This document shows positions 7,864 to 59,224 of a stretch of DNA of 64,000 nt, in pieces. The position numbers and the translations under genes are program-made. The stretch is from Eukaryota sp. GEM-RC1. Its lineage: Eukaryota. Every line of letters starts with the position of its first letter. Position 1 is the stretch's first letter. The DNA lies in the NCBI GenBank assembly GCA_040285855.1, contig JAUFOQ010000010.1:1116001-1180000 (forward strand). The letters are read 5' to 3'. The notes beneath the pieces were generated by a model. That model ran no database searches. It was given only the letters and a program-made list of their open reading frames with translations, and had not been told where the DNA came from.

Positions 7864-9222
7864 TTAAAAGAAAGAAATTCTGACTGTAGTTTTGAATCCA
7901 AAGGCCTCACTCAATGATGTGAGATCTTCATCTCCAATAGAGTTCATACGCAGATAAACTGTAGTGTTAACTTGCAACGCGTCTACCAATGCTCTGACAC
8001 CTTCATCTCCAATAGAGTTGTCCCTCAAATTAACTTTTGTAACTACATTATTTACTTTTAATGCCTCTGCCAAAGCTCTGGCACCTTCATCTCCAATGGA
8101 GTTTCTAAATAAATCAATACCTGTCACAGTACCATTAACTTTTAACGCCTCTGCCAAAGATCTGGCACCGTCAGCTCCAATAGAGTTGTCCCTCAAATTA
8201 ACTTTTGTAACTACATTATTTACTTTTAACGCCTCTGCCAAAGCTCTGGCACCTTCATCTCCAATATTGTTGTATCTCAGATCAACACTTGTAACTACAT
8301 TATTTACTTTTAATGCCTCTGCCAAAGCTCTAGCACCTTCATATCCAATAGAGTTCATCGACAGATCAACACTTGTAACTGCAGAATTAACTTTTAACGC
8401 ATCTGCCAAAGCTCTAGCACCTTCATGTCCAATATAGTTGCTCGTTAGATCAACATCTGTCACAGTAACATTAACTTTTAATGCTTCTGACAATGCTTTA
8501 ACACCTTCATCTCCAATAGATCCTGAGCTGAAACGAATACGTGTAACTGGAGCGTTGGTGTTTAACAATTCGAAGAAACCAATAGAAATGAAAGAATGCA
8601 CATGAACATCAAGTTGCTTAAGACGTGGAAAGAAGAGAGAAGATTTGTTGAGAAACTCCAAGTCATTGTGATTTTCTAAGAATAAATCCAATCCTGAAAT
8701 TACATTAGAATAACTAAGAAATTCTTCAGCATTAAAGGTTCCGAATTGGTGTACGAAAACAGATGGCATATCTGCTCCAAAGGAAGAAGCATATGAACGG
8801 AGCTGAGGAAGATATTTAGAAAAGACACGGAACGTGTTTGTTTGGAAAAACACCTTGGTTGCTAGAAGAGCAGATTCAAAGAAATGACGGCTTACATAGC
8901 CAACTTGCTTGAAAAAGGTAGACACAGAACTGTTCAAGGTGTGGACACCAGCACACGGTCTCAATGGACTAGTAGAAAACTTTATGAGACGACGTAGGTA
9001 GTGAAGATGAATCAAAACAAGCAAAGACTGTTGAAGTGGGAAGTGAGTGGAATGATAATGAACAGAGGAGCAGGAAGCCGATGATACACTTACACTAGAG
9101 ATAGGATTCGAAGAGAATAGACGCAAAGGGAATCCAAAAGAATCAACAGCACCAGTATCTGAAACACTACGTTCTTGCGATCGACTTGTCTTAGCTGGAG
9201 GTTCAGAATGAGACATTGTCAT
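7864..9222 (-). CDS. LRR family protein (Ser-rich leader, conserved core, ~8 RI-like 28-aa LRRs)
   Basis: Intact 452-aa ORF; core QQSLLVLIHLH..GYVS..FFESALLATKVFFQTNTF; repeats of type VTSVDLxxNxIGxEGARALAEALKVN. Confidence 0.9.
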   Translation of the reverse strand: MTMSHSEPPAKTSRSQERSVSDTGAVDSFGFPLRLFSSNPISSVSVSSASCSSVHYHSTHFPLQQSLLVLIHLHYLRRLIKFSTSPLRPCAGVHTLNSSVSTFFKQVGYVSRHFFESALLATKVFFQTNTFRVFSKYLPQLRSYASSFGADMPSVFVHQFGTFNAEEFLSYSNVISGLDLFLENHNDLEFLNKSSLFFPRLKQLDVHVHSFISIGFFELLNTNAPVTRIRFSSGSIGDEGVKALSEALKVNVTVTDVDLTSNYIGHEGARALADALKVNSAVTSVDLSMNSIGYEGARALAEALKVNNVVTSVDLRYNNIGDEGARALAEALKVNNVVTKVNLRDNSIGADGARSLAEALKVNGTVTGIDLFRNSIGDEGARALAEALKVNNVVTKVNLRDNSIGDEGVRALVDALQVNTTVYLRMNSIGDEDLTSLSEAFGFKTTVRISFF

Positions 9223-10414: not shown

Positions 10415-10560
10415 GCTTTTTGAAATAACCAAAGAAGTTCTCCATTTGGATTCATCTCTAGCAAATGGGGAGGCAATACTGGACATCCGCTCTACTCATT
10501 GCCTCAAAGATGTTTGGATGCTTGTGGATTATACATTTATCTAAAATCAGCACTGATCTG
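10415..10560 (-). mobile_element. Tc1/IS630-type DDE transposase relic
   Basis: Across frameshifts reads SVLILDKCIIHK..LPPHLLEMNPNG..FFGYFKKQVR, resembling D-N-x-x-x-H..LPPYSPxxNPIExxF. Confidence 0.6.
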
Positions 10561-12769: not shown

Positions 12770-13428
12770 GTTTATCAACATTAACCTTCACACCAAACTT
12801 GTACAATTTCTCAATTAATCTAGAGAAATAGAAAGGTATATTCCGATATATGGAAAACACTATACGGTTTTTCCATTCAGCCATTCTAAACTTTCTTTAC
12901 ACAATTCTTCGAAATCCTTGAAAAATTGATCACCAGCAGGACTAATAGATCCAAAAGAGAAACAGCAAAAGGTTGAAACACAAATTTGGAATATGAGTTT
13001 CTATTTAATTCTTCTACTTGAGAGTCATACTTGGAGTGTTTGAGCTTTGCAGCTGGTGTTAATGGATTAAAAGAAGAATCTAATATCCTACTAACACAAG
13101 ATTTGTTACATACATCTACTGTAGTAAAATTCATTAATGATTGACTCGATTTAAGCCACGGAGTATGTAGATCCCCTCTTTTTTGATCAGTAAATTCATT
13201 TTCTGAAAGATGATTCAAAACTGGTACAACTTTAGAGTGAAAACCATGTGCTTTAAACATGGAATAACAAGAATCACGTACACCATCATGAATTACTGCA
13301 CGGAGATGAATAAAATAACGACAATTAATTAAATGACGAAAAACACCATTAGCTCCACAAGAGCACGTTGAATAGTTTAATAATTTTGCAGGCCAAATAG
13401 CCAAACGAAGACGCATATTGATCATCAA
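12770..13428 (-). mobile_element. CRE-like non-LTR retrotransposon fragment (zinc knuckle and RLE endonuclease)
   Basis: RLRL..CSCG..HLINC..RAVIHDGVRD..RGDL..FTTVD..AAKLKHSKYD..FVFQPFAVS. Confidence 0.8.
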
Positions 13429-13883
13429 AAATGAAAGAAAATCTAGGAGAATTATCCCACTACAACTTCGAATAAATGTTACTTAAATACTTGGAAAAAC
13501 TTCTGTAAAGCGCAAACATAGTACACAAACTATGATTGTTTTAATGATAGATTCAAAATGTATTAGATTGTATCTCGATGAATGCATTTCGAGCTTGAAA
13601 TTTCTATATTATTAACATTGTTTATAAGGAAAGTGTAAGTGCTAAGACAAACTTACAACAAGAAACTTCTACAGTAAAATAATTGTTCAATCCAAATAAT
13701 TGTAAATTTGTTAATAAATTTGACATTAGTGATTAAATTTACAACAATTGTATATGTTCAACATTAGAAATAATACAAATGTCTTGGTACATTAACAGTT
13801 TCTCTAAGTTGGCTATTTTCTTCCCATATATCTCGAATATATCATATAAGAGACAAACAATTACTTTTCTTATGATTTAAAGA

Positions 13884-17250: not shown

Positions 17251-18667
17251 TCACAAAAGAAGATGATTAATTCCTTCGATTTCAACTGTGGTATTAACTT
17301 TTAATGTTTCTGCCAAAGCTCTACCACCTTCAGCTTTAATATAGTTGTAACTCAGATTAATATATCTGACTGTGCTATTAACATTTAACGCCTCTGCTAA
17401 AGCAGTAGCACCTTCATCTCTAATTAAGTTGCCCTCAAAATTAATATATGTAACGGTAGTATTGACTTTTAACGCATTTGCCAGAGCTCTAGCACCTTCA
17501 GCTCCAATATAGTTTGTTTCAAGAGCAACACTTGTAATTGTGGCATTAACTTTTAAAGCTTCTGCCAGAGCTTCAGCACCTTCATTTCCAAGTCACTCCC
17601 AGATCAATACTTTTAAGAGTAGTATTAACTTTTAACGACATTGCCAGAAGTCTAACACCTTCAACCCCAAGTGAGTTGTTGTAGAAACTAAATCTGGTAA
17701 CTGTATTATTAACCTTCAACGTCTTTGCAAATTCTCTGGCACCTTCAGCTCGAATATTGTTCCAACCCAGATTACAACTCGTAAGTGTATTATTAACTTT
17801 TAATGAACGTGCCAACACTTTAGCACCTTCAGGTCGAAAAGAGTTTTTCCATAGATTAATACCTTTAATTGTAGTATTAACTTTCAACAACTCTGCCAGA
17901 GCTCTAGCACTTTCAGCACCAAGGGAGTTCATACCCAGATCAATACTTTTAATTGTAGTATTAACTTTTAACAACTCTACCAGAGATGCAATGCCCTCTT
18001 CCTTAATAGAATTGTTCCTCAGACTAATACTTGTAACTGTAGTATTAGCCTTCAATGATTCGATGGATACCAAACAAATAGAACGACGAATACGCACGCG
18101 AAGTTGTTTAACACGTGGAAAGAACAAAAACGGGTTATTGACAAACTCCAAGTCATTGGGGCTTTTCAAATCCAATTCCAATCCTGAGATTATAGGAGAA
18201 TAACTAATCCAGTCCTCAACATTAAAGGCCTTGTCCACGTGTAAGAAAATGGACTTGGGATCTGCTTTAAAGAAAGAAGAAAGTGGAAAGAGTTGAGGAA
18301 GGTCTTTTGGAAGAACGTGGAACGTGTTTGTTTGGAAAAACACCTTCGTTGCTAGTAGAGAGGATTCAAAGAAGTGGTCGCTCATATAGCCAAGTTTCTT
18401 GAAGAATTTGGGAAGATCTTTCTTTAAGTTAAGGACATCGGAAAAATCATCACGATCCCAATGAGAAGAATGTTCTAACAAATGATTGAGGAAATGGAGG
18501 TGGATCAAAACGAGAAGAGATTGTTGGAAGCGCAAGATATTGGGAGGAGAATGAGTGGAGGGGGACGTAACAGAGCTACCGCCAAACAACTTGGCCAAAA
18601 GGGAATCAACATATCTATACATTGACTGTAACAATTGAAAGATCACAATGACTTGTGATGACTTCAT
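17251..18667 (-). pseudogene. LRR family gene with retroelement-derived N-terminus, 9 LRRs; frameshifted
   Basis: Close paralog of 42804-44207. A ~5-nt deletion near 17593 (GTG A CTT GGA vs GTA AAC GCG CTT GGA) is not in a homopolymer. The frame resumes to ..IEGINHLLL*. Confidence 0.8.
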
Positions 18668-19399: not shown

Positions 19400-19541
19400 G
19401 ATATTCATGAGTGGAATACTTGATTTTTTATTCGCCATGTTTAAAGAACATGGCTTAAAACTATAAACAAATTGCTATTTTAAAAACTTTTTATATACAG
19501 TGGCTTTAAGTATCAAAAGATGTTTTTTTGTTAAATAGCTG

Positions 19542-21751: not shown

Positions 21752-21874
21752 TGTTAGCACAGCAAGTGTTAACACGTGCTCTATTAGTGAACTGTAGTCT
21801 TATTTTACTTAGATTATTCTCTCCCCTTATAAAGGTACCGTCCTTTTTCACTTTCAGCCTTAAACAAGGCATCA
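21752..21874 (+). repeat. 5' LTR (123 bp)
   Basis: TGTTAGCACAGC..AAGGCATCA, repeated at 27829. Confidence 0.95.
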
Positions 21875-21915
21875 ATAGCTATTGGCCGTACAATAAGGCC
21901 TATCTAACCTCAAGT

Positions 21916-23220
21916 ATGTCAACTAAACCCCAATCTTCACATCCAGCATCACACCTTCTTGCTGATCAGGTACGCTTCGTAGCACCGAAGCTGTCCTCCC
22001 TCTCCAAGAATGCCGTCGCCCGCTTCGTCCAGGAAGTCTCTCACTTCCTCCAGGCCTCCGAGCCTGAACAATTCCAAAGTATTCCTTTGACAGAACCAAC
22101 TGTGTTTCCTGCCTCCTCCGCTTCCATTCCTTCAGCTGCTGAACGCTTGGCTGAAGTCGAACAAATGATCCATGCCGCCTTAAGAGAATCTCACTCTCAC
22201 CTCGATGGTTTTGACCCTGAAACCTTTGCCGCATACTGGTCCGCTGCCAGGAAAGTCACAATTGCCGCCAACCCCCCTTCTCCTAAATCCTCTTCGGGAA
22301 CTTCCATGCCCAACTTTCTCAAAGACGACGCGGATACTCTAAGACGCAACTTAAAGTCTTCTAAATTATCTCACTCCTCTTCCTCCCCTCATCAGCTTGA
22401 TGACTGGGATGGCCCTTCCTTCTTTGATGACCCTCCCGTCCCTGAGGGCTTTCATCGCTTTATCCTCCCAAACATAATCAGCCTAATTCGTATTATGTGT
22501 CCAACCGCTCTTTCTAGCCAGGAAAACCTGTGGACTTACCTACTATCCACCATAGCCGCCAAAGACGCCTCAGAAGCCAGAAGATTGCTGAACTCACTCT
22601 CAATGAAAACGCCAGGCCGAGAACCACTTACATTCTACATCCTCGACCTCCAGAAAGCTGCCCAGAGATGCAAGAACTTCCTGAACATCTCCAGGCCGAA
22701 ACCGCTAATGGAAAGTTTCATCCAAGGCCTCAAGCCCTACGCTTTAAAAAGCAAATTGATGGATGAGTTCAAGATGAACATCATCCAGGACATCGATTCA
22801 CTAATATCCAGAACGATCGCGCTCAATGAAACTATAACTCATGAAGAAACGAACCCCAGATTCCGTAATGCTCAAAGAAGAAGTGATTTTAACTCTATCT
22901 CCAACTTTAGAACCAGAACTCCATATCCAAATTCCAACCTCCGAAACAAAGAACCAGCCGGCGAAAAGAAAAGCTGCTCTTTCTGTAAGAAAGACGGCCA
23001 CGTTATCGAAGATTGCTTCGATAAGTCGTGTAAGAAGTCGAAACATTATGATCCATCAGCTCCGCAAACGAAGAAGCCGTACTCAAATCCAAGGCTTCCA
23101 AGACCAACATTTGGAAACGCTAAAGATCAACTAGAAGCTCTAAAAACAATTTTGTCGCTTCCAGAGAGCAATGCTTTGAAAGTCCTTACTCTACCACTAT
23201 CTCAGATGACGAACCCATAG
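21916..23220 (+). CDS. gag: Gag with CCHC zinc knuckle
   Basis: MSTKP..FIQGLKP..CSFCKKDGHVIEDC. Confidence 0.88.
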   Translation: MSTKPQSSHPASHLLADQVRFVAPKLSSLSKNAVARFVQEVSHFLQASEPEQFQSIPLTEPTVFPASSASIPSAAERLAEVEQMIHAALRESHSHLDGFDPETFAAYWSAARKVTIAANPPSPKSSSGTSMPNFLKDDADTLRRNLKSSKLSHSSSSPHQLDDWDGPSFFDDPPVPEGFHRFILPNIISLIRIMCPTALSSQENLWTYLLSTIAAKDASEARRLLNSLSMKTPGREPLTFYILDLQKAAQRCKNFLNISRPKPLMESFIQGLKPYALKSKLMDEFKMNIIQDIDSLISRTIALNETITHEETNPRFRNAQRRSDFNSISNFRTRTPYPNSNLRNKEPAGEKKSCSFCKKDGHVIEDCFDKSCKKSKHYDPSAPQTKKPYSNPRLPRPTFGNAKDQLEALKTILSLPESNALKVLTLPLSQMTNP

Positions 23221-27779: not shown

Positions 27780-27828
27780 AAACACTCGCTGCTCTTAAGC
27801 CATGAGAGGCTTCAAGAAAGAAGAGCAT

Positions 27829-27939
27829 TGTTAGCACAGCAAGTGTTAACACGTGCTCTATTAGTGAACTGTAGTCTTATTTTCTCTCCTCTTATAAAGG
27901 TACCGTCCTTTTTCACTTTCAGCCTTAAACAAGGCATCA
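27829..27939 (+). repeat. 3' LTR (111 bp)
   Basis: Matches the 5' LTR except for a 12-bp indel (ACTTAGATTATT) and one substitution. Confidence 0.95.
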
Positions 27940-31912: not shown

Positions 31913-34369
31913 ATATTTGTTTTACCTCCCGTCAGATGAGAGTTGATGAATTAGTTCTAATTGTGGATTTTCTAAGGCAAAATCTGTATATTATACATTT
32001 TGAATGTCATCTCTATCAAATTGACACTGATGAAGACGTGTTTTGTCTTCAAGGAGCAAAAGACTAAAGAGCAAACGTAACTGTTGAAGTAGTCTCATCT
32101 TTGCGGTGTTTTTTGGAGTGTTTCAGTATCAAAAAGTTTACTCTTAAAAAATGTAACTTTACTAAGGAATCCATCACTGCTTTGTGTGATTTAATTAGGT
32201 CTAATAACTCATTGACTTCTGTTGGCTTCAGTGACTTTAAATGCGTCGAATTAACTCAACATGGAACTTACCAAAGGATTGACAATTTCGATTCTTATGA
32301 CGATTATTCTAACTTAATCAGTGCAATTCACTGCAACTCTCGTTTAACTACAGTTACTTTGGGTAATTGTAACATGGGTCTTAAAACTCTACTCACTGTT
32401 TTTGAACTAGTTTCAACCAACAAATTAACTTCGATTATTGATATATCTCCTCATTTAATTGATTTATCTCGTGGGTCTATTTGTTATACCTCCCGTCAGA
32501 TGAGAGTTGATGAATTAGTTCTAATTGTGGATTTTCTAAGGCAAAATCTGTATATTATACATTTTGAATGTCATCTCTATCAAATTGACACTGATGATGA
32601 CGTGTTTTGTCTTCAAGGAGCAGAAGACTACAGAGCAAACGTAACTGTTGAAGTAGTCTCATCTTTGCGGTGTTTTTTGGAGTGTTTCAGTATCAAAAAG
32701 TTTACTCTTAAAAAATGTAACTTTACTAAGGAATCATCACTGCTTTGTGTGATTTAATTAGGTCTAATAACTCATTGACTTCTGTTGGCTTCAGTGACTT
32801 TAAATGCGTCGAATTAACTCAACATGGAACTTACCAAAGGATTGACAATTTCGATTCTTATGACGATTATTCTAACTTAATCAGTGCAATTCACTGCAAC
32901 TCTCGTTTAACTACAGTTACTTTGGGTAATTGTAACATGGGTCTTAAAACTCTACTCACTGTTTTTGAACTAGTTTCAACCAACAAATTAACTTCGATTA
33001 TTGATATATCTCCTCATTTAATTGATTTATCTCGTGGGTCTATTTGTTATACCTCCCGTCAGATGAGAGTTGATGAATTAGTTCTAATTGTGGATTTTCT
33101 AAGGCAAAATCTGTATATTATACATTTTGAATGTCATCTCTATCAAATTGACACTGATGATGACGTGTTTTGTCTTCAAGGAGCAGAAGACTACAGAGCA
33201 AACGTAACTGTTGAAGTAGTCTCATCTTTGCGGTGTTTTTTGGAGTGTTTCAGTATCAAAAAGTTTACTCTTAAAAATGTAACTTTACTAAGGAATCATC
33301 ACTGCTTTGTGTGATTTAATTAGGTCTAATAACTCATTAACTTCTGTTGACTTCAGTGATTTTAATTTCTTCGAACTAACTCCAAAAGGTGTATACGAAA
33401 GGTTTGACAATTTCGATTTTTATGACCATTACTTTAACTTAATCAATGCAATTCAGTGCAACCCTACGTTTAACTGAAGTCACTTTAAGTAATTATAACA
33501 TGGGCATTAAAACTCTACTAACTATCTTTGAACTAGTTTCAACTAACAAATTAACTTCGAATATTGATATATCTCCTCATTTAATTGATTTATCTTGTGG
33601 GTCTATTTGTTATAACCATGATGTTAGTGATGATGAATTACTTCTACTGGTGGATTTTCTAAGGCAAAATCGGGATCTGAAAAGTTTTGATTGTGGTCCC
33701 TATCATATTGAAACTGATGATGACGTGTTTTGTCTTCAAGGAATACGAAACTACAACAAAACAAAAGTATCTGTTGAAGTAGTCTCTGATCTTACGTGTA
33801 ATCTCATTGGGTCTCAAGGTGTCAGAGCGTTGGCAGATGCTTTGAAGGTGAATTCGTCTGTTTCTTGGATCGATCTAGGTAACAACTCAATTGGTAATGA
33901 AGGCGTTTTTGCAATTGCTGAAGCTTTGGAGGTGAATTCGTCTGTATCTACGATTTATCTATCTAACAACTCAATTGGTAATGAAGGCGCTATTGCAATT
34001 GCTGAAGCTTTGAAGGTGAATTCCTCTGTTTCTCATGTCTATCTATATAACAACTCAATTGGTCCTGAAGGCGCTATTGCGATTGCTGAAGCTTTGAAGG
34101 TGAATTCTTCAGTTTCTGGGATCGATCTAGGTAACAACTCAATTGGTCCTGAAGGCGCTATTGCGATTGCTGAAGCTTTGAAGGTGAATTCGTCTGTTAC
34201 TGCTATCGGTCTAAGTAACAACTCAATTGGTAATGAAGGCGCTATTGCAATTGCTGAAGCTTTGAAGGTGAATTCGTCTGTTTCTGCTATCTATCTGCGT
34301 AACAACTCAATCAACAGTCAAACACAACAGACATTAAAATCACTACACAGGAATAGAATGTTTTTTTAA
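31913..34369 (+). pseudogene. 5'-truncated gene: ~3.3 tandem 564-nt (188-aa) units fused to 7 LRRs of a second subfamily
   Basis: Unit landmarks at 31924, 32488, 33051 and ~33614. TAC>TAA stop at 32065-32067 and several 1-nt indels. The C-terminus has SxIxLxNNSIGxEGAIAIAEALKVNSSV repeats. Confidence 0.8.
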
Positions 34370-38960: not shown

Positions 38961-39098
38961 AGGTATTTGTATCTCATTTGTTAATATTTATGATACATGT
39001 TGTTTGTATTTGCATTAGTAAATAATAGGCGTTAGAAATATTTTCTACTTAGTCCAAGTTATCATACTAGTACATCTTCCTCAATTACTCTACAAAAT

Positions 39099-39140: not shown

Positions 39141-39163
39141 GGAAAGCTATACTACGTTACTAA

Positions 39164-40109: not shown

Positions 40110-40492
40110 TAGGAGTTTCTGAACAAGTATTCCTTGTTCTTTCCACATCTTAAGAAACTTGATGTGTGGATTTCCAATCTTTTATGGAATAAATCGAACT
40201 ATTAAAACTTAATAAAACAGTTACTAGTGTTAATCTTACTAACAATGTTATTAGAGATAAACATGTTAGAGTTTTGGCAGACACGTTAAAAGTCAATACA
40301 ACATGTAGAAGTTTTAATTATAAACTTAATTTAAACTGTATTGGAGTTAAAGGTATCAGAGATTAGGCAGATGCGTTGACAACTAATGATCTACGTTGCA
40401 ACTCTATTGGACATGACAATGCTGCAGCTTTGGCTGAGATTTGGCAGCAATAATGATTAAGTTGAAATAAAGGGTGGAGATCATCTTGATTG
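40110..40492 (+). pseudogene. Decayed LRR family relic
   Basis: EFLNKYSLFFPHLKKLDV followed by three broken LRR units with stops and indels. Confidence 0.75.
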
Positions 40493-42330: not shown

Positions 42331-42872
42331 CCTAATTGTCCCGAGTTCGCTGCTTTTTCAATTGATCTTTGTAATAGTGGAACTCCTGGATTTGTTGCTC
42401 AAATTCCAAAGGTGTATGGATTACATCAATCTGATGAAGCTTGGATGACCAATATGCGTCTTCGCTTGGCTATTTGCCCTGCAAATTTATTAAACTATTC
42501 AATTTGCTCTTGTGGAGCTAATGGTGTTTTTCGTCATTTAATTAATTTTCGTTATTTTATTCATCTACGTGCAGTGATTCATGATGGTTTACGTGATTCT
42601 TGTTACTCCATGTTTACAGCACATGGTTTTCACTCTAAAGTTGAACCAGTTTTGAATCAATAATCTCAAGAGTTGTCATAGGAGCAATAAAAGAAATACA
42701 GTGTTTTACCCCTTTCGTTATCTTACAATGTTCAGCTTTTTGTTCTTCTACTAAGGAGTTTGTAAATTTGTTTAAACAACTAAGTTAAGCATTTGGTACA
42801 AAAATGATCTTCCGATTCTTCAAGTCAATGTATAGATATGTTGATTCCATTTTGACCAAGTTGTTTCGCGGT
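42330..42872 (+). mobile_element. CRE-like non-LTR fragment, internally deleted, running into the LRR gene
   Basis: NMRLRLAI..CSCGANGVFRHLIN.. is nearly identical to the 13.2-13.4 kb copy; then VFYPF..SSTKEFVNLF..SMYRYVDSILTKLF. Confidence 0.78.
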
Positions 42873-44207
42873 AGCTCTGTTACGTCCTCCTCCTCCACAC
42901 ATTCTCCTCCCAATATCTTACACTTTCAACAGTCTGTCCTCGTTTTGATCCACCTCCATTTCCTCAATCATTTGCTAGACCATTCCTCTCACTGGGATCG
43001 TGATGATCCTTGTCTTGATGTCCTTAACTTAAAGAAAGATCTTCCCAAGTTCTTCAAGAAACTTGGCTATATGAGCGACCACTTCTTTGAATCTTCTCTA
43101 CTAGCAACGAAGGTGTTTTTCCAAACAAACACGTTTCATGTCCTTCCAAAGGACGTTATCCCACTCTGTTCATTTGCTTCTTTCTTTGAAGCAGATCCCA
43201 AGTCCATTTTTTTACACGTGGACAAGACCTTTAATGTTGAGGACTGGATTAGTTATTCTCCCATAATTTCAGGATTCAAATTGGAATTAAAAAGCCATAA
43301 TGACTTGCAGTTTGTCAATAACTTGTTTTTGTTCTTTCCACGTGTTACAGAACTTCACTTGCGTATTCGTCGTTCTATTTCTATGGCATCGATCGAATCC
43401 TTGAAGGCAAATACTACAGTTACAAGTATTAGTCTGAGGAACAATTCGATTAATGAAGAGGGTATTGCACATCTAGCAGATTTGTTAAAAGTTAATACTA
43501 CAATTAAAAGTATTGATCTGGGTATGAACTCTCTTGGAGCTGAAAGTGCTAGAGCTCTAGCAGATTTGTTAAAAGTTAATACTACAATTAAAACTATCAA
43601 TCTGTGGAATAACTCTTTTCAAGTTGAAGGTGCTAAAGTTTTGGCACGATCATTGAAAGTTAATAATACACTTACGAGTTGTAATTTGGGTTGGAACAAT
43701 ATTCGAGCTGAAGGTGCCAGAGAATTTGCAAAGACATTGAAGGTTAATAATACAGTTACAAGATTTAGTTTTTACAACAACTCACTTGGGGTTGAAGGTG
43801 TTAGAGCTCTGACTAAGTCGTTAAAAGTCAATAATTCTATTAAAAGTATTGATTTGGGGGTAAACGCGCTTGGAAATGATGGTGCTAGAGCTCTGGCAGA
43901 AGCTTTGATAGTTAATAATACAATTACAAGTATTGCTCTGGAAACGAATTATATTGGAGCTCAAGGTGCTACTGCTTTAGCAGATGTGTTGAAAGTTAAT
44001 ACTGCCGTTACATATATTAATTTGGAGGGTAACTTAATTAGAGATGAAGGTGCTACTGCTTTTGCAGAGGCGTTAAAAGTTAATAGCACAATCAGATGTA
44101 TTAATCTGAGTTACAACTCTATTAAAGATGAAGGTGGTAGAGCTTTGGCAGAAACATTAAAAATTAATACCACAGTTGAAATTGAAGGAATTAATCATCT
44201 TCTTTAG
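42804..44207 (+). CDS. LRR family protein (retroelement-derived N-terminus, core, 9 LRRs)
   Basis: Intact 467-aa ORF; its first 23 aa match the CRE-like ORF tail at ~7075-7135. Confidence 0.88.
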   Translation: MIFRFFKSMYRYVDSILTKLFRGSSVTSSSSTHSPPNILHFQQSVLVLIHLHFLNHLLDHSSHWDRDDPCLDVLNLKKDLPKFFKKLGYMSDHFFESSLLATKVFFQTNTFHVLPKDVIPLCSFASFFEADPKSIFLHVDKTFNVEDWISYSPIISGFKLELKSHNDLQFVNNLFLFFPRVTELHLRIRRSISMASIESLKANTTVTSISLRNNSINEEGIAHLADLLKVNTTIKSIDLGMNSLGAESARALADLLKVNTTIKTINLWNNSFQVEGAKVLARSLKVNNTLTSCNLGWNNIRAEGAREFAKTLKVNNTVTRFSFYNNSLGVEGVRALTKSLKVNNSIKSIDLGVNALGNDGARALAEALIVNNTITSIALETNYIGAQGATALADVLKVNTAVTYINLEGNLIRDEGATAFAEALKVNSTIRCINLSYNSIKDEGGRALAETLKINTTVEIEGINHLL

Positions 44208-44994
44208 TGATCATAGGTTTTTATCGTGTTCACTTAATAAATTGAATTTACTAGTATACGTGTATCTGTAAAACTTTTAGACTACTGAACTTGCTTAATT
44301 GATGAAAGTGGAAAAACAAGTCTAGGTAACAAATTTTACATTTTTTTATAATATTACTAATACACTGACAACATTTATGACCATTGCACAATAGAAGTAT
44401 AAATTTTACCATAACGGTGAGGAAATTAATACACATGTCTAATGGAAAGATATAGACTCCTATCGAATAGAACTGCTGAGTATTTACTCGATTTATCATG
44501 TTACAATTCAAGTAGGTGTATAAACACTGATTCAGTAATTTAAATGTATACCAAATGAATAAGAACATTACTCCTAGTCTAACAATAAATACAAATCTCA
44601 CAAATCATTTTAATATTCCCTTGTGTCTTCTTGCACTTAAGCTAAACAATTCATGTCTCTTACAGTTTTTTCTTTTTTTCCCGGATAAATTCTCCTTTCC
44701 TTCTACTTATGTACTAGTGAAGGGGATATCCAGAACTACTAGAATGATGGCCGTCTATGTACGGACATAGTTTGAATTGATTCAAAAGCTCGCTTTTCTT
44801 CTCATAAGTTGCTAAGTTAGTGAGCCAATCTTCATTGAGTTGGTACATACCGTAAGTTGTACTTTGTAGAGTAGTTGTGTTTATGCAAAAAAACTAACTT
44901 TTGAGGAAGATGTTGATCCAGGATCTACAAATATCATGATAAGCCTATATAACCTCCAAGTTGATGTAGTTCTTTACTTCAACAGTACTATTAT

Positions 44995-45207
44995 TTCGGC
45001 ACCTTCAGCTTTAATAGAGTTGTTGCTCAGACCAATACTTGTAACAGTGGTATTAACTTTTAATGCATCTACCAAAGCTCTTGCACTTCTTAACTCCGAT
45101 AGAATTGGCCTACAGATCAACAGTTAAATATTTAAAATTAACTATTAAAGTATCTGCCAGAGCTCTTACACCTACATCAAGAATTAAGTTACTCCTCATA
45201 TTAATAC
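44995..45207 (-). pseudogene. Orphan LRR cassette (about 2.5 repeats)
   Basis: The reverse complement resembles 47310-47460, including AGTATTAATATGAGGAGTAACTTAATTC and the odd AAATATTTAA..GGCCAATTCTAT repeat. Confidence 0.75.
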
Positions 45208-45581
45208 TACACTCTTCACAACAATTAGTCTGAATTCATAATTAGTTTGAATCACTTATTAGTCTGAAGCAGACCAATTATTGTTTGATCACTTTCAATA
45301 TTCTTCAGTGAAATGTTATAAAACAGTCCATGTCTTTCATTTTTCTTCTACGCACTGTTTGAGTTGACGTAAACAAACCTTGTCCCACAATATTCACACT
45401 TTCTTGAAGGACAATTCGATCACTAATCAATTTTTATGAGACAATCTTATATCAGACCAGTCCTGTTTCTGGATTGCTTCGGTCTAAAACAACCATTGAC
45501 GGTGCAAACAACGATCGTAATGTTCAATGTAACATTTGTGAAGACATAAAAACAATTAAAGGTCAAGGAATTATTCATATG

Positions 45582-46145: not shown

Positions 46146-48126
46146 ATGGAACATAATACTGGAGAAAGAACTGCTGTTACATCTTCCTTCAGAGGGTGCG
46201 ATTCTGCTCCTCATTCCTTCAGTTCTGAAGCTGGTGGTCAACCACCCGTTTCCACCCCACGTCCATCCCACGAACAATATCAACTTCCCTCTGAAGCCCC
46301 CTTCACTGCCGAAATCGCCAACGTCCCAGACAGTGCATCAAAAGCTGACATCAAGCAGGCTTTCTCCTCTCTTCCAATTAAAGAAGTTCGATCTCCTAGT
46401 AATATTCCAGGTACGTTCTTTGTCGAATTTCTTGATGTTCAAGGACTCAAGCAATGTTTAGATGAGTACTGGATGTTTAAGATCCATGACCGCTCTATCC
46501 GTACCTATGTAGCCTCTGCTCCTCAGTCTTCTGTTAAACCATTGATTGCTGGCACCTTCTCTTCTAAACCTAATGCTGAACCTATACCACTTGATCTTCT
46601 CCCTTTGACATCCTCATTCCAATCTCCTTCAAGATGCTTACACTCTCAGCAGTCCTTGTTAATTCTCATTAATGTTCACTTGTTGAGAAGTCTCTGTAAG
46701 TCTGCTCTTGAATTGAATCGTTATTATCGTAGTTCTCTTCTTAACTTGAAGAATACTCTTGTTACTTTCTTCAAGAAAGTGGGCTATGTTAGCCATCACT
46801 TCTTTGAATCTGCTCTATTTGCAAGCAAGGTGTTTTTCCAAACAAACACGTTTCAAGTCATTCCTGAAGAACTTCCTCAACTCTGTTCATTTGCTTCTTT
46901 CTTCGGTGCAGATATACAATCTGTTTTCTTACACGTAAAAGGGAACTTTAATGTTGAAGAACATCTGCCTTATTCTAATGTTATTTCAGGATTGGAATTA
47001 GGATTGCAATGCCACAATGACTTGGAGTTTTTGAACAAGTCTTCCTTGTTCTTTCCACGTCTTAAACAGCTTCATGTGAATGTTCTTTCTCCGTTTGCTA
47101 TGATATTTGCAGAATTATTGAAGGAAAATGCTACAGTTACAAGCGTTGATTTGAGGAACAACTCTATTGGAGCTGAAGGTGCAAGAGCTTTGGCAGATGC
47201 GTTAAAAGTTAATACTACAGTTACAAGTCTTGATTTGAGGAACAACTCTATTAGAGCTGAAGGTGCAAGAGCTTTGGCAGATGTGTTAAAAGTTAATACT
47301 GTAGTTACAAGTATTAATATGAGGAGTAACTTAATTCGTGATGAAGGTGCTAGAGCTTTGGCAGATGCGTTAAAAGTTAATCCTAAATATTTAATTATTC
47401 AGCTGCAGGCCAATTCTATTGGTGATGTGGGTGCCAGAGCTTTGGCAGATACGTTAAAAAAATCACACCGCTGTTACAATTCTAAATCTAAGTTACAACT
47501 CTATTGGAAATGATGGTGCTAAAGCTTTGGCAGATGTGTTAAAAGTTACTGTTACACTTACGGGCGTCAATTTATGTTATAATTCTATTGGAGATGAAGG
47601 TGTTAGAGCTTTGGCAGATGCATTAAAAGTTAACACTACAGTTACAAGCGTTAATCTGAGTGCAAACTATCTTGAACCTGAAGGTGCTAGAGCTTTGGCA
47701 GATGCATTAAAAGTTAACACTACAATTACAAGTATTAATCTGAGTTCAAACCGTATTAAAGCTGAAGGTGCTAGAGCTTTAGCAGATGCATTGATAGTTA
47801 ACACTACAATTACAAGTGTTAATATGGGTGACAACATTATTGGAGTTAAAGGTGCTAGAGCTTTAGCAGAAGCGTTAACAGTTAACACTACAGTTACAAC
47901 TGTTAATCTGAGTGCAAACTATCTTGAATCTGAAGGTGCTAGAGCTTTGGCTGAAGCGTTAAAAGTTAACACTACAATTACAAGTATTGATCTGAGCAAG
48001 AACTCTATTGGAAATGAAGGTGCTGGTGCTTTGGCAGAGGCGTCAAAAGTTAATGACACTGTTGAAGTTAATGGAGTATATCTACTTGGAGGTTATATAG
48101 ATTTTCTTGATAATTGTAGATACTAG
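46146..48126 (+). CDS. eIF4B-like RRM, core and 11 LRRs; one frameshift in an A-run
   Basis: LPSEAPFTAEIANVP..FFVEFLD..RSIRTYVA; the ORFs join on removing one A near 47456-47462. Confidence 0.85.
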
Positions 48127-48769: not shown

Positions 48770-51700
48770 ATGTCTACAGACAACAATAATTATTATGTCC
48801 CTTGCGGATCCGCTCCGTGTGACTCACAGCCTCCTCATTCACTAAAGTCTCAAGACCCTACATTGAGTAGGCTGGTTGTAGAGAGTTCCGTTCCTCCAAT
48901 AACTCCCCAAAGATTCTCCGAGGTTGTAGGTTTCGTCCCTGCTCCTTAAATTCAGCAAACATCCCCAGAAGGTTCCGCCCTTCAAAGGATTCCTGTGGTT
49001 GAAGGTTCCGCCCTTCCTTCCCAACCCCAAAGGGGAGTTATCACCATTCGAGATGATAGCTCTCCAGAAGGTCCTGCCCTTCAGAGCTCTCCCTCCCTGG
49101 AAGAGTCCGCTACCCATGATAGGACCATTTCTGAGGATACCACTCCTCCAACGAGTCCTTCCTTCGAGAAAAATTAGAGCTATGTTCAGCGGAGCCCCAA
49201 CTCCGAACAAGCCTTTCCCTACTCTACAATTCTCCTCACTTGCAACTCCCACTCGCAATCAGGAGGGTTTACGCCTTCCACCCAAGTCTTTGCCAAAAGC
49301 CACTTCCAAAAGTGCTCCCATAAAACAGTCTCAGAAGGGTCCCGTTCCCTCATCACTTCCCATAGATGATTTCTTGTCGACTCCACGTGCCCTGGACTCT
49401 GTTCCTCATGTTGGTAAAAAGATCATAGTTTCTCACGTCACTCCCACCGTAGACCCTGACTTAGAAGATCTATGTGATCACGACGTATCTGATGACGAAA
49501 AGTCTGGCCGGACGCCTGCTAAAGACGCGTCTGACCGTTCTCAACCCCCGCCGTTAAGGTCTGACACGGACACGAGAAAGTTCCAAACCCTTCCCATTAT
49601 TCCCGTGTAAGGTGTTTATTCCGGTCAGGTCCTCCAAATCGGCTTCTTCCAAGTTATTCCAGGCCCTTCCTGGACTCTACCAACAAGGGTTAACTGAAGA
49701 GGGACTGAAACTAGCAGACCGTCATATGTTCTCATCAGATCGCCGAATGGTCCATGATTTTCTCCATGGAGTCAAAAACAGTACTGATTACCTCAGAAAC
49801 CGCTATCCGAGATCAGCCGAAGCTGCTAAAAGACCAGGAGACAATTTAATGACGAAGTTATGCCCCTCGAAGGAACATTTACGATCCTTGACGACCGAGG
49901 AAGACCCCATACTATGCTGATGGACCCTAGCAAATTGAAAACCATGATTCCCGTTAATAAATGCTGGGAAACAGTCCAGGAAGTATCAACGGGTCGAATT
50001 TTAGCAAATTCGAATTCGGACAAAACCCATATTCGGCCATGAGATCACAACCCCTCTCCGCTTCCGAAGCTCAGAGTGATCAATCTCGACTGATGAAGTG
50101 GTGATCCAGCCTACTGCATTAAAATACAGAGCTCGAGTGGAATAGGAAGAAGAACTCGCTCGTAGAGCAAATGCAAATCCGAAGTCTAAAGTGAAAGGAA
50201 TTTCCACTTTTCATCAATCACCTTCCGATCAATCAAATCCACTACCTGATGTCCACCAGCTTGGTCTCTCCATGAGTGACCTCAGCACGACAGCAACCTC
50301 CCCCCTCAACTGACATCCTTCCCCCCTGGCTCCGTCAGTTGTGGAATATCCTTCCTCAATGTTCTATAATGTTGTCACATTTCAACAGAAATTCCCAGTC
50401 GACTCTATGAAAATCTCCAAACTTCAGCCTAAGGTGCTTTCGAGTTTGAAACTCTAAGACATCATTGAATTTGCTACAGACTTTCTTCAATGGAGCGTGA
50501 TGGACCCTACCCACAAAACACCGGTAGGGGCTCCATTCGGATGGCCAAGACACTTTTTCGACTTCGATCGAACAGCTGCAGCAAATGCTGACCCTTCTTA
50601 CATCCAACGCTTTGTGAAGTTTGACTTACAGTCCCAACTGTCAATGCAAAAGGAGTGGGATGGTAAGAACCCTCTCACCCTTTGGTTGGCTCTCCTCAAG
50701 CGTACTCAGTTCCCGGACGAAACCACGGCATTGAATGAGCTCAACAAGGTCAACATGAAGTGGTCCATCGCAGACCCCGAAGAGCGATGGAGCGATTTCA
50801 TATCACGTTTACAGAGAATCCAAGCCATCAAGCCGAAGAACAAGCCAATGACTGTTTTGTCAGACAAAGCCATTGTTAAAGCTATTCTATCGAACTTTTT
50901 CATTGTTTCCATCTGGATCGAATGTTGGCCTCTCTACCAGGATTCTGAGGACATCCAAGGATTGATTTTTGAAGTCAAACAACGTTACAACACTTGGTGT
51001 GCGAGATGGCAATCTGCTTCAGCCAATGTCCAGAACGAACAACGAATCACTGAAATCGCTAACCTTAGAGATACGGCAACTTGGGACGACCTCCCCAAAA
51101 CCTGGACTTCCCGTCCTCTCATCCCGGTTCAGTCTAGTGAACCCGGTAAATCTAGAAGATCGGTTTCCAGTTTCAAACCCTCGAAGAAGCCTCGATCAAT
51201 CAATGTCCCGACCCTGAGTGTAGACGCAGTTAACTCCTTTCAGACCAACGAAAGGCCACGAGTACCGTCTCCCAACCACCGAATCGTAGTCGTAGCAAGA
51301 AAAAGTTTCATAAAAAATCTAAATATTTCAATGCACAATCAGTACATATAAACACCCTTGTAGATATATCTGATAACACCACATCATCTATTCAATCAAA
51401 TCCCATTTTGATTGAAACCAATCAATTCTTAAACCCATTGAGCAACATCAGTTCTGCCAATAATAATACGAACTCACAAAACCTGAATTCCATATTCAGC
51501 ATAAGTAGTCAGAACTCACTCAGCTGCAAACTGATGTTTAACAGAATTCGGGTTCAAGGTTTTTGGGACGGTGGAGCAACCATGTCCGTAATCACACAAG
51601 ACCTGGCTATGAAGTGTAACATGACGCCCGTTAACAAAAATGTTCGCTTCACATCCGCAAACAATGTCGAGTCCCGGTCTTTGGATAGCGCCCAGGGCAT

Positions 51701-53629
51701 CTTGACCTTCGATACCAGTAGCATCGCGTACCTGACAGATGTGGATAAGACATTACCAATAATACCTGGATCCAACAAACCATTCTTGGGAATTGATCTA
51801 ATGAAACAGTTAGGACTACTGTCCGAAAACAGACTAGTCATCCGGATTGACAGGACCATCCTGGCCATTGTGAACGATGAGTCCGAGTTCGACTCCGACT
51901 CATACTACATTTCCACAGCCTCTCTATCAATAACGTAGACTTTAATAACCATGTATTTGATTCCGGTTGTACAATACTTTTAGATGATGACACCAGAGCC
52001 GAGAGCTTATTGAACCGGCTTCAGGAGTTTTCCTCAATATTCTCAACAGCTCCTCACAAAGACGGCATCGATTGTCATGGCATGGCATGGCATGGCAATT
52101 GATATCTACAATGAAGAGTCCACTGTGGGACGGAAACCTCGACAGCTCAATCCAATGAAACAGCGGATTGCCGAAGAGATTTTCGATGAACTTGTTCGTC
52201 AGGACTTTGCTGAGTTAACAACTCCTAAACACTTCCTAAAGCATTCTGGCAGCTAAACCTAGCTGAGGACGATGGTGAGAAAACCAGTGTGTCTATACCT
52301 GGGATGTCAATTAACGAGCATGTTTTGGATTGAAAAACGTACCAGCGATTTTTCAAAACATCATGATGGAAATATTCGATGTGGAAGGTGTATTAATTTA
52401 TATAGACGATATAATTGTAGTAGGTGACACTTTCGGACAGTTTATTTCAAGAATAAATCTAGTACTGGAACGAGCAGAACGTTTTAGAGTACGGATTCTT
52501 CCAGCTCCTTCAACATTACCCGAGGTAAGAAGTTTACTTGGCACATTAAATTATGTTCGTGAATGGATTCCAAATTTTTCAAATTTGACTGCCACAATCA
52601 ATGAACTCACTCGTGGAAAACCAATGAAGATTCTATCCCTAGGGATAATGTCGATAACCGAGTTTGCCAATGCTATTTTCGAGGCAGTTTGTAACCTACT
52701 GGCCATTTAAGTAAGTCGTTCGATTCCTCATTTCTCGCAGAGTAGTGGGCTGGTGGAACGACGTCACAGAGACGCTCTGCAGAGCCTACGTCGTCTCCTT
52801 GTGGACTTCAATGATTACGACAATTAAATCAACGTACATTCCAACTGTACAGTTGCAAATCAACGCAACAAAAAGCTCTGGTACTGGGCATACTCCCTAC
52901 GAACTGATGTTCGGTAGCGACTTAAGTCCTAGTGCAAATCCTGATGGTTTACTAGATGCTGTTGAGAAATTGACAAAGAATGTCCCATTTATTGACGACA
53001 TTAAAATGAAACTAGAACGACTAACGAAAAAGAGAGAAGAGGCAGAGATTCGACAATCTTCAATCAAGCTAAAAAAGATTTCTTAACCTAATCAATCATT
53101 TAAGATTGGATATCTTGTGTTGAAAGTCTCCAAAACTAGTAAGCTCCACGGTAATTACTCTGGACCTTTTCTAGTAGTGTCTAATCTGATTACTGGTCAC
53201 GTTATTAAAACTCGCATTCATCAATGTAAGATCTTTCAATCAGATCTACCAGCTGATCATGACATCCATAGAGCAATCGCTTCTGGTGATTCTAAAGAAC
53301 ACATCGTGGTTAAGATCCTGGATAGGTTCAACACACCCAATGCGATGGTGAGTATTGTACGGTCCTCTGGTTTGGTGGTGATACTTTATCAGTTCCCACT
53401 TATGACATCAAGAACACCAAGGCGTACAGTGAATTTGTAAAATTAGAAAATGTAGATTTATTTAAAAGTAGTAACAAGAAACCTAAGCGTACCTCAAGTA
53501 GTACGAGCAATCCTAAAGCAGCCAGCGTCAAGACACCTGTGGCTAAGAGAACAAGGAGCTCGAGAGAAGAGAAGAGGTAGTGTTAGTCAAAGGTATTAGT
53601 ATAGTATCAAGTAGTATAATTTCATAACA
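48770..53629 (+). mobile_element. Decayed Ty3/gypsy element related to the 21.7-27.9 kb element
   Basis: Gag-like ORFs; FWDGGATMSVI protease; KAFWQL..GLKNVPAIFQN..YIDD; deletion from RT into integrase; GLVERRHR, TPYELMFG, YSGPF; purine tract at 53562-53580 followed by TGTTAG. Confidence 0.88.
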
Positions 53630-53639
53630 TAAACACCTT

Positions 53640-56170: not shown

Positions 56171-56348
56171 GAATTTACCTGTGAGTAAGGGTAAGGGTAA
56201 AGCAAAGCGTCCTCTAACAAAAGTCAGAGGTCCTAACAAGTGTGGTATATGTTTTCAACCTGGACATAACAAAACAACTTGTCCAAATAAGCCTAAGAAA
56301 GATGTACCCAAGGACTCACACGTAAACCAGAAAGATCAGGAATCTTGA
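56171..56348 (+). mobile_element. Zinc-knuckle fragment typical of DNA-transposase C-termini
   Basis: Basic stretch followed by CGICFQPGHNKTTC. Confidence 0.5.
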
Positions 56349-56530
56349 ATCTATGAAGTTAGCTCGTCTTAAAAGTCTTTGCGAATGAGGACATTTATTT
56401 GTTCAAACTGTGAGTTCTGCTCATGAGTTTGCTTACGAGCTTGCTCATGAGATCATGAAAATGTGAAGGGTTATGCCCTTATGCATTTGGAATGAAATTC
56501 ACAGAGGAATTTACCATTGTAACTTACAAC

Positions 56531-59224
56531 ATGGACCATACCACTGGAAAAGAACTGATGTTACATATTCCCTCCAAAGCCGCGATCCTCCTCCGTCTTT
56601 TAGTTCAGGAGCTGAGCATCCGTCATTCGGTGTTCCTTTTCGTCAATCGCACGAAGAATATGAACTTCCCTCTACAGCCCCCCTTCATTGCCGAAATCGT
56701 TACCGATGCAAACACTGTAACAGAAGCTGACATCAAGCAAGTTTTCTCCTCTCTTCGAGTTAAAGAAGTTCGACCTACTAATAATATGCCAGGTACGTTC
56801 TTTGTCAAATTTCGTGACGTTCATGGACTCGAGCAATGTTTAGATAAGTACTGGATGTTTAAGATCCATGGCCACCCTATCCGTACCTATGTAGCCTCTG
56901 CTCCTCAGTCTTCTGTTAAACCATTGAACAGTAGTACCTTCTCTTCTAAACCTAATACTGAATCTAAACCACTTGAACTCCTCCCTTTGACATCATCGTT
57001 CCAATCTCCTTCTAGATGCTTACACTTTCCACAGTCTTTGCTGATTCTCATCAATATTCACTTGTTAAAAAGTCTCTGTAAGTCGTATCCTGATTGGAAA
57101 CGTGATTATCCTCGTCGTTATGTTCCTATCTTTTTCAAGAAAATTGGCTATGTAAGCCATAATTTCTTTGAATCTGCTTTACTATCAGCCAAGGTGTTTG
57201 TCCAAACAAACACGTTTCATATAGTACCGGAAGACCTTCCTCAACTTTGTTCATTTGCTTCTTTCTTTCGAGCAGATGTACAATCTGTGTTTTTACACGT
57301 ATATGGGATCTTTAATGTTGAAAAATTTTTCAATTACTCTAATTTAATTTCAGGATTGGAATTGAAAATAAGGAATGAAAATGGATTGGAGTTTCTGTAC
57401 AAGTCTTCTTTGTTTCTTCCACGTCTTAAGGAACTTCATGTGAATGTTTGTTATGGTTTTTCCATCTCTATGCCATTTATTGAAATGTTGAAAGTTAATA
57501 CTACAGTTACCAGGGTTAATCTGGGGCACAACTATATAGTAACTGAAGGTGCAAGAGCTTTGGCAGATGCGTTAAAAGTTAATTCCACAATTACAAGTGT
57601 TAGCTTGGTTATGAACTTGATTAAAGATGAAGGTGCAAGAGCTTTGGCAAATGCGTTGAAAGTAAATACTTCACTTACAAGTGTTGATTTAAGAGACAAT
57701 TATATCAAAGTTGAAGGTGCAAGAGCTTTGGCAGATGCGTTAAAAGTTAATTGCACAATTACAAGTGTTAGTTTGGATTCGAACTCTATTGGAGTTGAAG
57801 GTACAAGAGCTTTGGCAGATGCGTTAAAAGTTAATTCCACAATTACAAGTGTTAGTTTGGATTCGAACTCTATTGGAGTTGAAGGTGCAAGAGCTTTGGC
57901 AGATGCGTTAAAAGTTAATTCCACAATTACAAGTGTTAGTTTGGATTCGAACTCTATTGGGGTTGAAGGTGCAAGAGCTTTGGCAAATGCGTTAAAAGTT
58001 AATTCCACAATTACAAGTGTTAGTTTGGATTCGAACTCTATTGGAGTTGAAGGTGCAAGAGCTTTGGCAAAGGCGTTAAAAGTTAATTCCACAATTACAA
58101 GTGTTAGTCTTCGTTCGAACTCTATTGGATCTGAAGGTGCTAGAGCTTTGGCAGATGCGTTAAAAGTTAATACTACAATTACAGTTTTGAATCTGAATAG
58201 CAACTCTATTGGATCTGAAGGTGCTGGAGCTTTGGCAGATGCGTTAAAAGTTAATACTACAATTCCAGTTTTGAATCTGAGTTACAACTCTATTGGATCT
58301 GCAGGTGCTGGAGCTTTGGCAGAGGCTTTGAAAGTAAATACTACCATTACAGTTGTGAATCTAAATAACAACTCTTTTGGATATGAAGGTGCTAGAGTTT
58401 TGGCAGAGGCCTTGAAAGTAAATACTACAATTACAAGTATTGATCTGAGTAACAACTCTCTCAGTGCTGACAGTGTTAGAGTTTTGGCAGAGGCGTTTAA
58501 AGTAAATACTACAATTACAGTTGTGAATCTTTATTACAACTCTTTTGGATATGAAGGTGCTAGAGCTTTGGCAGCGGCGTTGAAAGTAAATACTACAATT
58601 ACAAGTATTGATCTGAGACACAACTCTCTTCGTGATGAAGGTGCTAAAGTCGTGGCAGATGCGTTGAAAGTTAATGATACAGTTTCTCGTGTCATTTTGG
58701 ATCGTAACTCTATTGGTTCTGAAGGTGGTAGAGCTTTGGCAGATGCGTTAAAAGTTAACACTTCAGTATCATGTATCGACCTGGAGGGCAACTCCATTGG
58801 AGTTGAAGGTGCTAGAGCTTTGGCAGATGCGTTAAAAATTAATTATACAGTTACTAGTGTCATTTTAAGTCATAACTCCATTGGAGTTGAAGGTGCTAGA
58901 GCTTTGGCAGATGCGTTAAAAGTTAATGGCTTTATTGCAATTATTGATTTGGGTTATAACTATGTTAAAATTGAAGGTGCTAGAGCTTTGGCAGATGCGT
59001 TAAAACTTAACACTGCAATTATAAGTCTTGGTCTCAGTTATAACTATGTTAAAACTGAAGGTGCTAGAGCTTTGGCAGATGCGTTAAGCTCTAACACTAC
59101 GGTTAAAAGTATTCATCTAGGTGACAACTTTATTGAATCCGAAGGTGCCAGTGCTTTGTTAGAGGCGTTAAAAGTTAATGGTACTGTTGAAGTGCACGGA
59201 TTACGCCATTTTAGCGGATTTTAA
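56531..59224 (+). CDS. eIF4B-like RRM, core and 20 LRRs
   Basis: Open ORF, paralog of 46146. Compensating -1 and +1 indels (near 56548 and 56678-56683) alter ~44 N-terminal residues. Confidence 0.9.
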   Translation: MDHTTGKELMLHIPSKAAILLRLLVQELSIRHSVFLFVNRTKNMNFPLQPPFIAEIVTDANTVTEADIKQVFSSLRVKEVRPTNNMPGTFFVKFRDVHGLEQCLDKYWMFKIHGHPIRTYVASAPQSSVKPLNSSTFSSKPNTESKPLELLPLTSSFQSPSRCLHFPQSLLILINIHLLKSLCKSYPDWKRDYPRRYVPIFFKKIGYVSHNFFESALLSAKVFVQTNTFHIVPEDLPQLCSFASFFRADVQSVFLHVYGIFNVEKFFNYSNLISGLELKIRNENGLEFLYKSSLFLPRLKELHVNVCYGFSISMPFIEMLKVNTTVTRVNLGHNYIVTEGARALADALKVNSTITSVSLVMNLIKDEGARALANALKVNTSLTSVDLRDNYIKVEGARALADALKVNCTITSVSLDSNSIGVEGTRALADALKVNSTITSVSLDSNSIGVEGARALADALKVNSTITSVSLDSNSIGVEGARALANALKVNSTITSVSLDSNSIGVEGARALAKALKVNSTITSVSLRSNSIGSEGARALADALKVNTTITVLNLNSNSIGSEGAGALADALKVNTTIPVLNLSYNSIGSAGAGALAEALKVNTTITVVNLNNNSFGYEGARVLAEALKVNTTITSIDLSNNSLSADSVRVLAEAFKVNTTITVVNLYYNSFGYEGARALAAALKVNTTITSIDLRHNSLRDEGAKVVADALKVNDTVSRVILDRNSIGSEGGRALADALKVNTSVSCIDLEGNSIGVEGARALADALKINYTVTSVILSHNSIGVEGARALADALKVNGFIAIIDLGYNYVKIEGARALADALKLNTAIISLGLSYNYVKTEGARALADALSSNTTVKSIHLGDNFIESEGASALLEALKVNGTVEVHGLRHFSGF

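Follow-up and report, generated by a model that had tools for sequence, protein, structure and literature searches.

Hypervariable repeat repertoires are known from both protists and fungi. In Tetrahymena, a young repertoire of leucine-rich repeat (LRR) proteins is a species-specific protist expansion with variable repeat number and unequal crossing over, and the same account mentions nearby retroelements, a suggested innate-immune role and mostly purifying Ka/Ks ratios (PMC6564038); among the NOD-like receptors (NLRs) of fungi that carry WD, ANK or TPR repeats, e.g. the HNWD genes of Podospora, repeats are duplicated and exchanged, a few positions per repeat are under positive selection, and the N-terminal domains are combinatorial (PMC4986451). 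Here, we describe an LRR family that resembles both, starting from seven paralogs in a 64,000-nucleotide (nt) stretch of Eukaryota sp. GEM-RC1 (GenBank assembly GCA_040285855.1, contig JAUFOQ010000010.1, positions 1,116,001 to 1,180,000, forward strand), which we refer to as "the window". The source is here equated with Skoliomonas sp. GEMRC, which is described as an anaerobic, free-living flagellate; it is a free-living metamonad with a 33.5 Mb assembly, obtained from Nanopore reads polished by Illumina, a genome that is 48% repetitive, and 14,268 predicted proteins (PMC11316075). No published description of the GEMRC LRR family has been found in the literature searched, and the main text of the genome paper, supplements excluded, does not contain the word "leucine" (PMC11316075).

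Each paralog consists of a leader, a conserved core and an array of 84-nt repeats; the family is large, its arrays have grown by the duplication of whole units, its paralogs are mosaics, and in a minority of members the core is preceded by an RNA recognition motif (RRM) or a RING-like domain. We propose, with a probability of roughly 0.45, that its members act as intracellular binders which form a diversifying set and share an adaptor head: the loops of the repeats would grip varied targets, and the conserved helical head would pass these targets to a single shared partner, for which a ubiquitin ligase is the likeliest candidate. The proteins would reside in the cytosol or the nucleus and would possibly serve in defence, be it against viruses or bacteria or against mobile elements of the genome itself. 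The census of the family has been drawn from protein databases, the DNA-level tests are concerned with the seven window copies, and both refer to one assembly.

The paralogs and the extent of the family

A preliminary description of the window had listed seven paralogs that share a core and carry about 8, 11, 9, 9, 11, 13 and 20 repeats of 84 nt between positions 7,864 and 59,224, and our inventory agrees with it in span, repeat counts and unit length:

7864..9222, minus strand: paralog A; Ser-rich leader, core, seven full ribonuclease inhibitor (RI)-like repeats and one shortened repeat; open frame of 452 amino acids (aa), identical to protein P0001
13884..15498, minus strand: paralog B; leader of the A/I type, core, 11 repeats (ten, and one of 27 aa); frameshift in a C run at the leader/core boundary, about 15345
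17251..18667, minus strand: paralog C; short leader, core, nine repeats; 5-nt deletion in repeat 6, about 17597
42804..44207, plus strand: paralog F; short leader, core, nine repeats; open frame of 467 aa
42912..43400, plus strand: the conserved core, as exemplified in F; three long helices are predicted, followed by four irregular beta-alpha units and then by the regular repeats (modelled on the core of A)
46146..48126, plus strand: paralog H; RRM leader, core, 11 repeats; frameshift in an A run, about 47456
46275..46514, plus strand: the eIF4H/eIF4B-type RRM of H, without two RNA-binding aromatic residues
53640..55533, minus strand: paralog I; leader of the A/B type, core, 13 repeats; frameshift between core helices 1 and 2, about 55180
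56492..59224, plus strand: paralog J; RRM leader (about 56681-56896), core, 20 repeats; open frame of 910 aa

Paralog C is a recent duplicate of F, the two being collinear, and the leader of J contains two compensating indels. Paralog I has no start codon at the site homologous to that of A and has an in-frame ATG some 100 nt further upstream (55533 vs 55430, minus strand). The core, which had been put at about 150 aa, measures about 160 aa and is present in all seven paralogs, with 49-83% identity in our alignment.

The repeats are RI-like, as had been described: the units of 28 aa match Pfam LRR_6, and the predicted structure of A (pLDDT 84), in which three helices and four irregular beta-alpha units are followed by an RI-like solenoid, has NOD2, NLRP and ribonuclease inhibitor as its top fold matches, and axonemal chains also occur among the fold matches. 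The helix of the repeat, previously called near constant, is conserved at the protein level and not at the DNA level, i.e. the 39-nt helix string quoted in the preliminary description occurs exactly only four times (36 sites with up to 4 mismatches, 82 sites with up to 10), and the synonymous divergence of the helix is 0.38. The x positions differ almost everywhere, in agreement with that description: the four concave x positions occur in 63 different combinations among the 77 intact units of the window, and in 367 combinations among 490 units family-wide. The repeat counts exclude the broken units C6 and H5, the caps C10 and J21 and six units of a related gene (gene D, listed below), and the extraction of repeats has missed two further units, namely the shortened one that ends the array of A and the 27-aa one that begins the array of B.

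The DNA fits the earlier view that the paralogs are intronless, while four frameshifts had gone unreported: as assembled, the frame is broken in four of the seven (B, C, H and I), through either assembly error or real decay. A single-base shift at a base run accounts for three of these breaks, and an unrelated TRIM-like gene of the window is broken likewise; therefore, some of the frameshifts may be long-read assembly errors. In the NCBI models, introns span the breaks of C and H and seven repeats of J are missing, so that repeat counts derived from these models are lower bounds; public gene models thus miscount the repeats of this family. The skipped repeats could alternatively reflect diversity at the RNA level, where an AG/GT junction in each repeat would allow whole repeats to be spliced out in frame: the repeats of J (57488-59167) share an AG/GT at the same place, the NCBI model P0031 uses two of these junctions and thereby removes exactly seven repeats, and P0011 and P0013 differ by exactly three repeats. 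We find this highly improbable, as the donor sequence at the AG/GT of the repeat is a poor match to the usual splice donors and, since the same gene set also bridges the frameshifts of C and H by introns, a prediction artefact is the simpler reading. The arrays of four close pairs (P0011/P0013, P0040/P0043, P0002/P0003 and P0021/P0026) are collinear and differ by whole repeats, either through real change or as an artefact of the models.

A profile of the core has matched 78 proteins among 7,996 candidates (77 named GEMRC1, and the window's own), which are spread over 11 contigs, 35 of them on the contig of the window. An exhaustive profile search has yielded 175 representatives at 50% identity and E 0.001, the best 150 of the 175 being listed, and the pooled set comprises 200 proteins, i.e. 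the family accounts for at least 200 of the 14,268 predicted genes. Regular RI-like repeats occur in 97 of the 200 members and irregular LRR-like tails in two others that were inspected; the number of repeats in the gene models of the family ranges from 0 to 13. All 97 relatives with a source name are from GEMRC1 (the 77 core matches, and 20 of the 20 distant ones examined among 122), so that at E 0.001 no relative outside GEMRC1 is found among the 97 named matches, the presence of sister species in the databases not having been checked; of 108 pattern matches in metagenome contigs, none has been confirmed as a relative. By these searches, the family appears to be lineage-specific.

No NACHT/NB-ARC NTPase, kinase or TIR domain has been found among the proteins of the window, the precomputed domains of the 78 members and 63 distant members; a hydrophobic 19-mer occurs in four of the 78, and a hydrophobic N-terminus in one. 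Because membrane and signal segments are rare and these domains were not found, the proteins are likely soluble and intracellular.

Selection and renewal of the repeat arrays

The arrays grow by the recent duplication of whole units and blocks within genes: repeats I7 and I11 share an identical tract of 117 nt, J contains an identical tract of 83 nt, repeats J4-J8 differ by 2-7 nt, and the nearest-repeat links are intragenic in 36 of 76 cases, compared with 15% by chance. Renewal by unequal crossover or conversion, as had been suggested, is borne out as far as the duplication of units and the mosaic structure of the paralogs are concerned; recombination inside single repeats was not detected by a test of the PHI (pairwise homoplasy index) type (p 0.98-0.99) or in any of 438,900 triplets, where power is low at 84 nt, nor was short-patch conversion demonstrated, the clusters comprising 3-9 differences with donors that are trivial or absent. 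Over the leader and the core, 13 of 210 triplets are mosaic; the best p is 1e-7, the strongest switch lies near the conserved GYVS stretch, and the count of 13 is reached by none of 36 simulations without recombination and with regional rate variation; since the paralogs are mosaics, N-terminal exchange has support.

The ratio of nonsynonymous to synonymous rates (omega) is 0.43-0.69 for the core in all 21 paralog pairs, and 0.45 for the framework of the repeats (p 4e-14). With a shared synonymous rate, the concave positions give an omega of 1.36 (p 0.009) if the all-site tree is used and of 1.96 if the framework tree is used, and the pooled value of 1.36 is reached by none of 30 neutral simulations without recombination. 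Under the same shared rate, positions 13, 14 and 19 of the repeat have an omega of 1.8-2.1 (p 5e-4 to 3e-5), these being three of 28 sites that pass the Bonferroni correction; position 16 has an omega of 1.5, and strand positions 9 and 11 have values of 0.85 and 0.96, respectively. At position 19, omega exceeds 1 under both synonymous-rate models. In 15 close protein pairs, 104 of 180 concave sites differ (58%), compared with 219 of 945 framework sites (23%). Diversifying selection at loop positions 13, 14 and 19 is supported by these statistics, with the caveats given below; the signal is real but modest, located on the loop after the strand, and episodic. The excess of nonsynonymous change that had been anticipated at the exposed sites is, accordingly, a feature of the loop and not of strand positions 9 and 11.

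Several results weigh against a diversifying set of binders. When the concave positions are given their own synonymous rate, their omega is 0.85 (p 0.49) and 0.84, i.e. not different from 1; the neutral simulations contain neither recombination nor multi-base changes, both of which inflate omega, and the observed differences do cluster (42 vs 30, p 0.005). For the x set defined a priori, 19 close pairs within genes show 29 nonsynonymous and 5 synonymous changes (p 0.17), and the ratio of 26:2 for the loop set (p 0.02) belongs to a set picked post hoc. In the closest pair, C and F, the pattern is reversed, the x sites being under purifying selection (pN/pS 0.35), and the frameshifts of four of the seven paralogs count in the same direction.

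Nearly neutral birth-and-death, where a repeat-rich genome readily duplicates an LRR gene, the unconstrained exposed sites drift and many of the copies die, would be in keeping with a genome that is 48% repetitive (PMC11316075), with the four broken copies, the two decayed relics and the retroelements between the genes, with the high omega of the core, and with concave values that do not differ from 1 in the cautious model or at strand positions 9 and 11. We nevertheless regard it as somewhat unlikely, as the core and the framework are under purifying selection, C and F have retained the same x residues after their duplication, three loop sites have an omega above 1, and some of the breaks may be errors of the assembly, three of the four being single-base shifts at base runs.

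The purifying pattern of C and F would equally suit a set of housekeeping or structural LRR scaffolds (of the cytoskeleton, the flagellum or RNA handling), in which every repeat would have a set role of its own, as is the case in RI-like proteins generally; the axonemal and ribonuclease inhibitor chains among the fold matches point in this direction, and the RRM could hint at translation. Such a role is improbable for a family with no relative outside one species at E 0.001 among the named matches, with 0 to 13 repeats in its gene models, and with 58% of the concave sites differing between close paralogs.

The helical head, the RRM and the neighbouring genes

The core alone is modelled at pLDDT 87, and its three predicted helices, of 17-22 residues, are longer than those of an F-box. 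Foldseek has returned no match for the core at E 0.001 in PDB or BFVD, and the core profile has no sequence match in PDB; by VIA, the core resembles generic helical bundles (best Z 7.8), with no F-box chain among the top 50 matches listed, and several cullin-containing entries match the three helices at Z 6.4-7.8, a range that the tool calls common. That the head is a divergent F-box is suggested by the architecture, by two F-box motifs that lie in matching register in the core, as judged by eye, and by two Atlas queries: the core leads to F-box-like clusters at 0.90 with low sharing (about 112 of 256 features), and the N-terminal part of the LRR-like gene that starts at 21014, which matches the core weakly (6 bits), leads to F-box-like clusters at 0.92, also with a low count of shared features. 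Proline is found at the F-box motif position in 23 of 175 rows.

An F-box identity is nonetheless unlikely, and the proposed link to a ligase is weakened by the same results: Pfam recognises no F-box in the seven cores or in the 63 and 25 members scanned, hhalign of the core against a narrow profile of 48 giant-virus F-boxes gives a probability of 0.1-0.2, the two-motif F-box test is equalled by 413 of 1000 shuffles, and Giardia, which belongs to the sister group, is without Skp1 and Cullin1 (PMC7029713). No Skp1 from GEMRC is among the matches listed (120 of 4910 Skp1 matches). A first F-box search pattern has found 20 loci, mostly non-coding, and was discarded; for a BC-box, which was considered as a rival motif, the residue at the key small position is Ile/Val in the core.

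The N-termini had been described as three unrelated modules, which we do not find: A, B and I have homologous leaders, which align from the start, the proximal Ser/Pro-rich linker aligns in all seven paralogs, and the only separate N-terminal domain in the window paralogs is the RRM of H and J. Among the 200 members, the leader is short and Ser/Pro-rich in 161, an RRM in 14, RING-like in three and otherwise long in two, and 20 are without the core start. The RRM matches eIF4H (PDB 2dng) at E 6e-7 and eIF4B at E 4e-4 and 8e-4, the next RRM family following at E 0.17, and its similarity to eIF4H/4B takes in the N-terminal extension. At the RNP2 and RNP1 positions that we take to be the aromatic RNA-binding ones, the RNP2 Tyr is replaced by Glu or Lys and the RNP1 Phe by Thr, Ile, Gln or Arg in all 14 copies; the second RNP1 aromatic residue is kept in 13 of the 14.

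Among 12 members, identity is 72% in the RRM and 57% in the core. Between paralogs H and J, identity is 81-90% for the RRM and the linker and 57-85% for the core; their synonymous differences amount to 4 of 53 sites in the RRM vs 36.5 of 112 in the core (p 4e-4), i.e. a distance of 0.08 vs 0.43, and their RRM omega of 2.15 is not significant (p 0.17). By these comparisons, the RRM module is younger than the cores to which it is attached. Protein trees, which are quick trees with 42 of 75 branches open, do not reject a single origin of the RRM branch (p-AU, from the approximately unbiased test, 0.69 for the whole core and 0.55 for the distal core) and therefore neither show nor exclude the swapping of modules.

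Since eIF4H is a target of the herpesvirus shutoff protein, by which it is bound in host shutoff (PMC4848596), a role of the RRM as a decoy is conceivable, in which it would bait factors that attack translation. The family would then be an NLR-independent intracellular defence repertoire, with hundreds of LRR binders on a shared ligase-recruiting head, one branch of which carries a disarmed RRM as an integrated decoy, passed on by recombination at the conserved core; in this full form, the proposal is distinctly unlikely.

The remaining features of the window include two relics and a related LRR gene that the preliminary description had left out of its inventory of the span:

40112..40438, plus strand: decayed family relic; end of the core and a few repeats, with several stops
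44916..45208, minus strand: decayed family relic; two to three repeats
31914..34369, plus strand: related LRR gene D; tandem irregular-LRR blocks of about 564 nt with indels, then six RI-like repeats with another consensus
21752-27939: Ty3-type long terminal repeat (LTR) retrotransposon; gag-like open reading frame (ORF), protease, reverse transcriptase, RNase H and integrase, with LTRs of about 110-125 nt
36218-38110, minus strand: TRIM-like gene; RING frameshifted in an A run, B-box domains, and by eye a probable coiled coil and an SPRY-like end
49053-51938: remnant of a second LTR element; gag-like ORF and protease
60338-60811: reverse-transcriptase fragment
61428-63197, minus strand: intact CCDC81-like gene with HU domains

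The core was not detected in gene D, the blocks of which resemble by eye the C-termini of the distant members P0239 and P0280. The Ty3-type element sits inside the LRR-like gene that starts at 21014 and apparently continues to 29755. The TRIM-like gene is a second gene of the ubiquitin-ligase type within the LRR cluster. A repeat of 219 nt with 94% identity lies near B and F (13211-13429 and 42441-42659), and is possibly the end of a mobile element.

Comparison with known repertoires

The GEMRC family belongs with the known hypervariable repeat repertoires, and its general pattern is not new; particular to it are the private core and the captured eIF4H/4B domain. The repeat of the Tetrahymena repertoire is a 90-bp exon, whereas the metamonad family described here has contiguous, RI-like units of 84 nt behind a private helical core (PMC6564038). 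The family is not an NLR, as the central NACHT/NB-ARC of such immune receptors was not found in the proteins scanned; it differs from HNWD (PMC4986451) in this respect and also in that its repeats are LRRs and that only some units are highly alike. Somatic assembly of the type known from the variable lymphocyte receptors (VLRs) of lampreys was also considered and rejected: every paralog has its own full array in the assembly, and the two relics are decayed copies and not cassette arrays.

The F-box/LRR families, i.e. NEX1a, FBXL and those of Caenorhabditis, likewise combine a helical head, a conserved linker and a variable number of LRRs with birth-and-death evolution and with RING in some members (PMC4209131, PMC7729025, PMC8120010); for the NEX1a family of Neochlamydia, omega is about 0.6 (PMC4209131). 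Unlike theirs, the head of the GEMRC proteins goes unrecognised as an F-box in Pfam, profile and fold tests and has longer predicted helices, and we do not class the family as an F-box family.

How single-celled eukaryotes recognise intracellular invaders is largely an open matter, to which the family offers three handles: the loop sites for selection, the partner of the head, and a captured domain of a translation factor, from which a class of targets can be predicted. The last of these recalls the integrated domains of plant NLRs: a domain related to a housekeeping protein, here the eIF4H/4B RRM, is joined to an LRR family that evolves fast, and residues typical of its function have been lost from it. 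The GEMRC proteins differ in being without NB-ARC. If the RRM does act as a decoy, a deep eukaryotic branch would have evolved the logic of the integrated domains of plant NLRs without an NLR; if it does not, the locus would represent one more lineage-specific LRR expansion.

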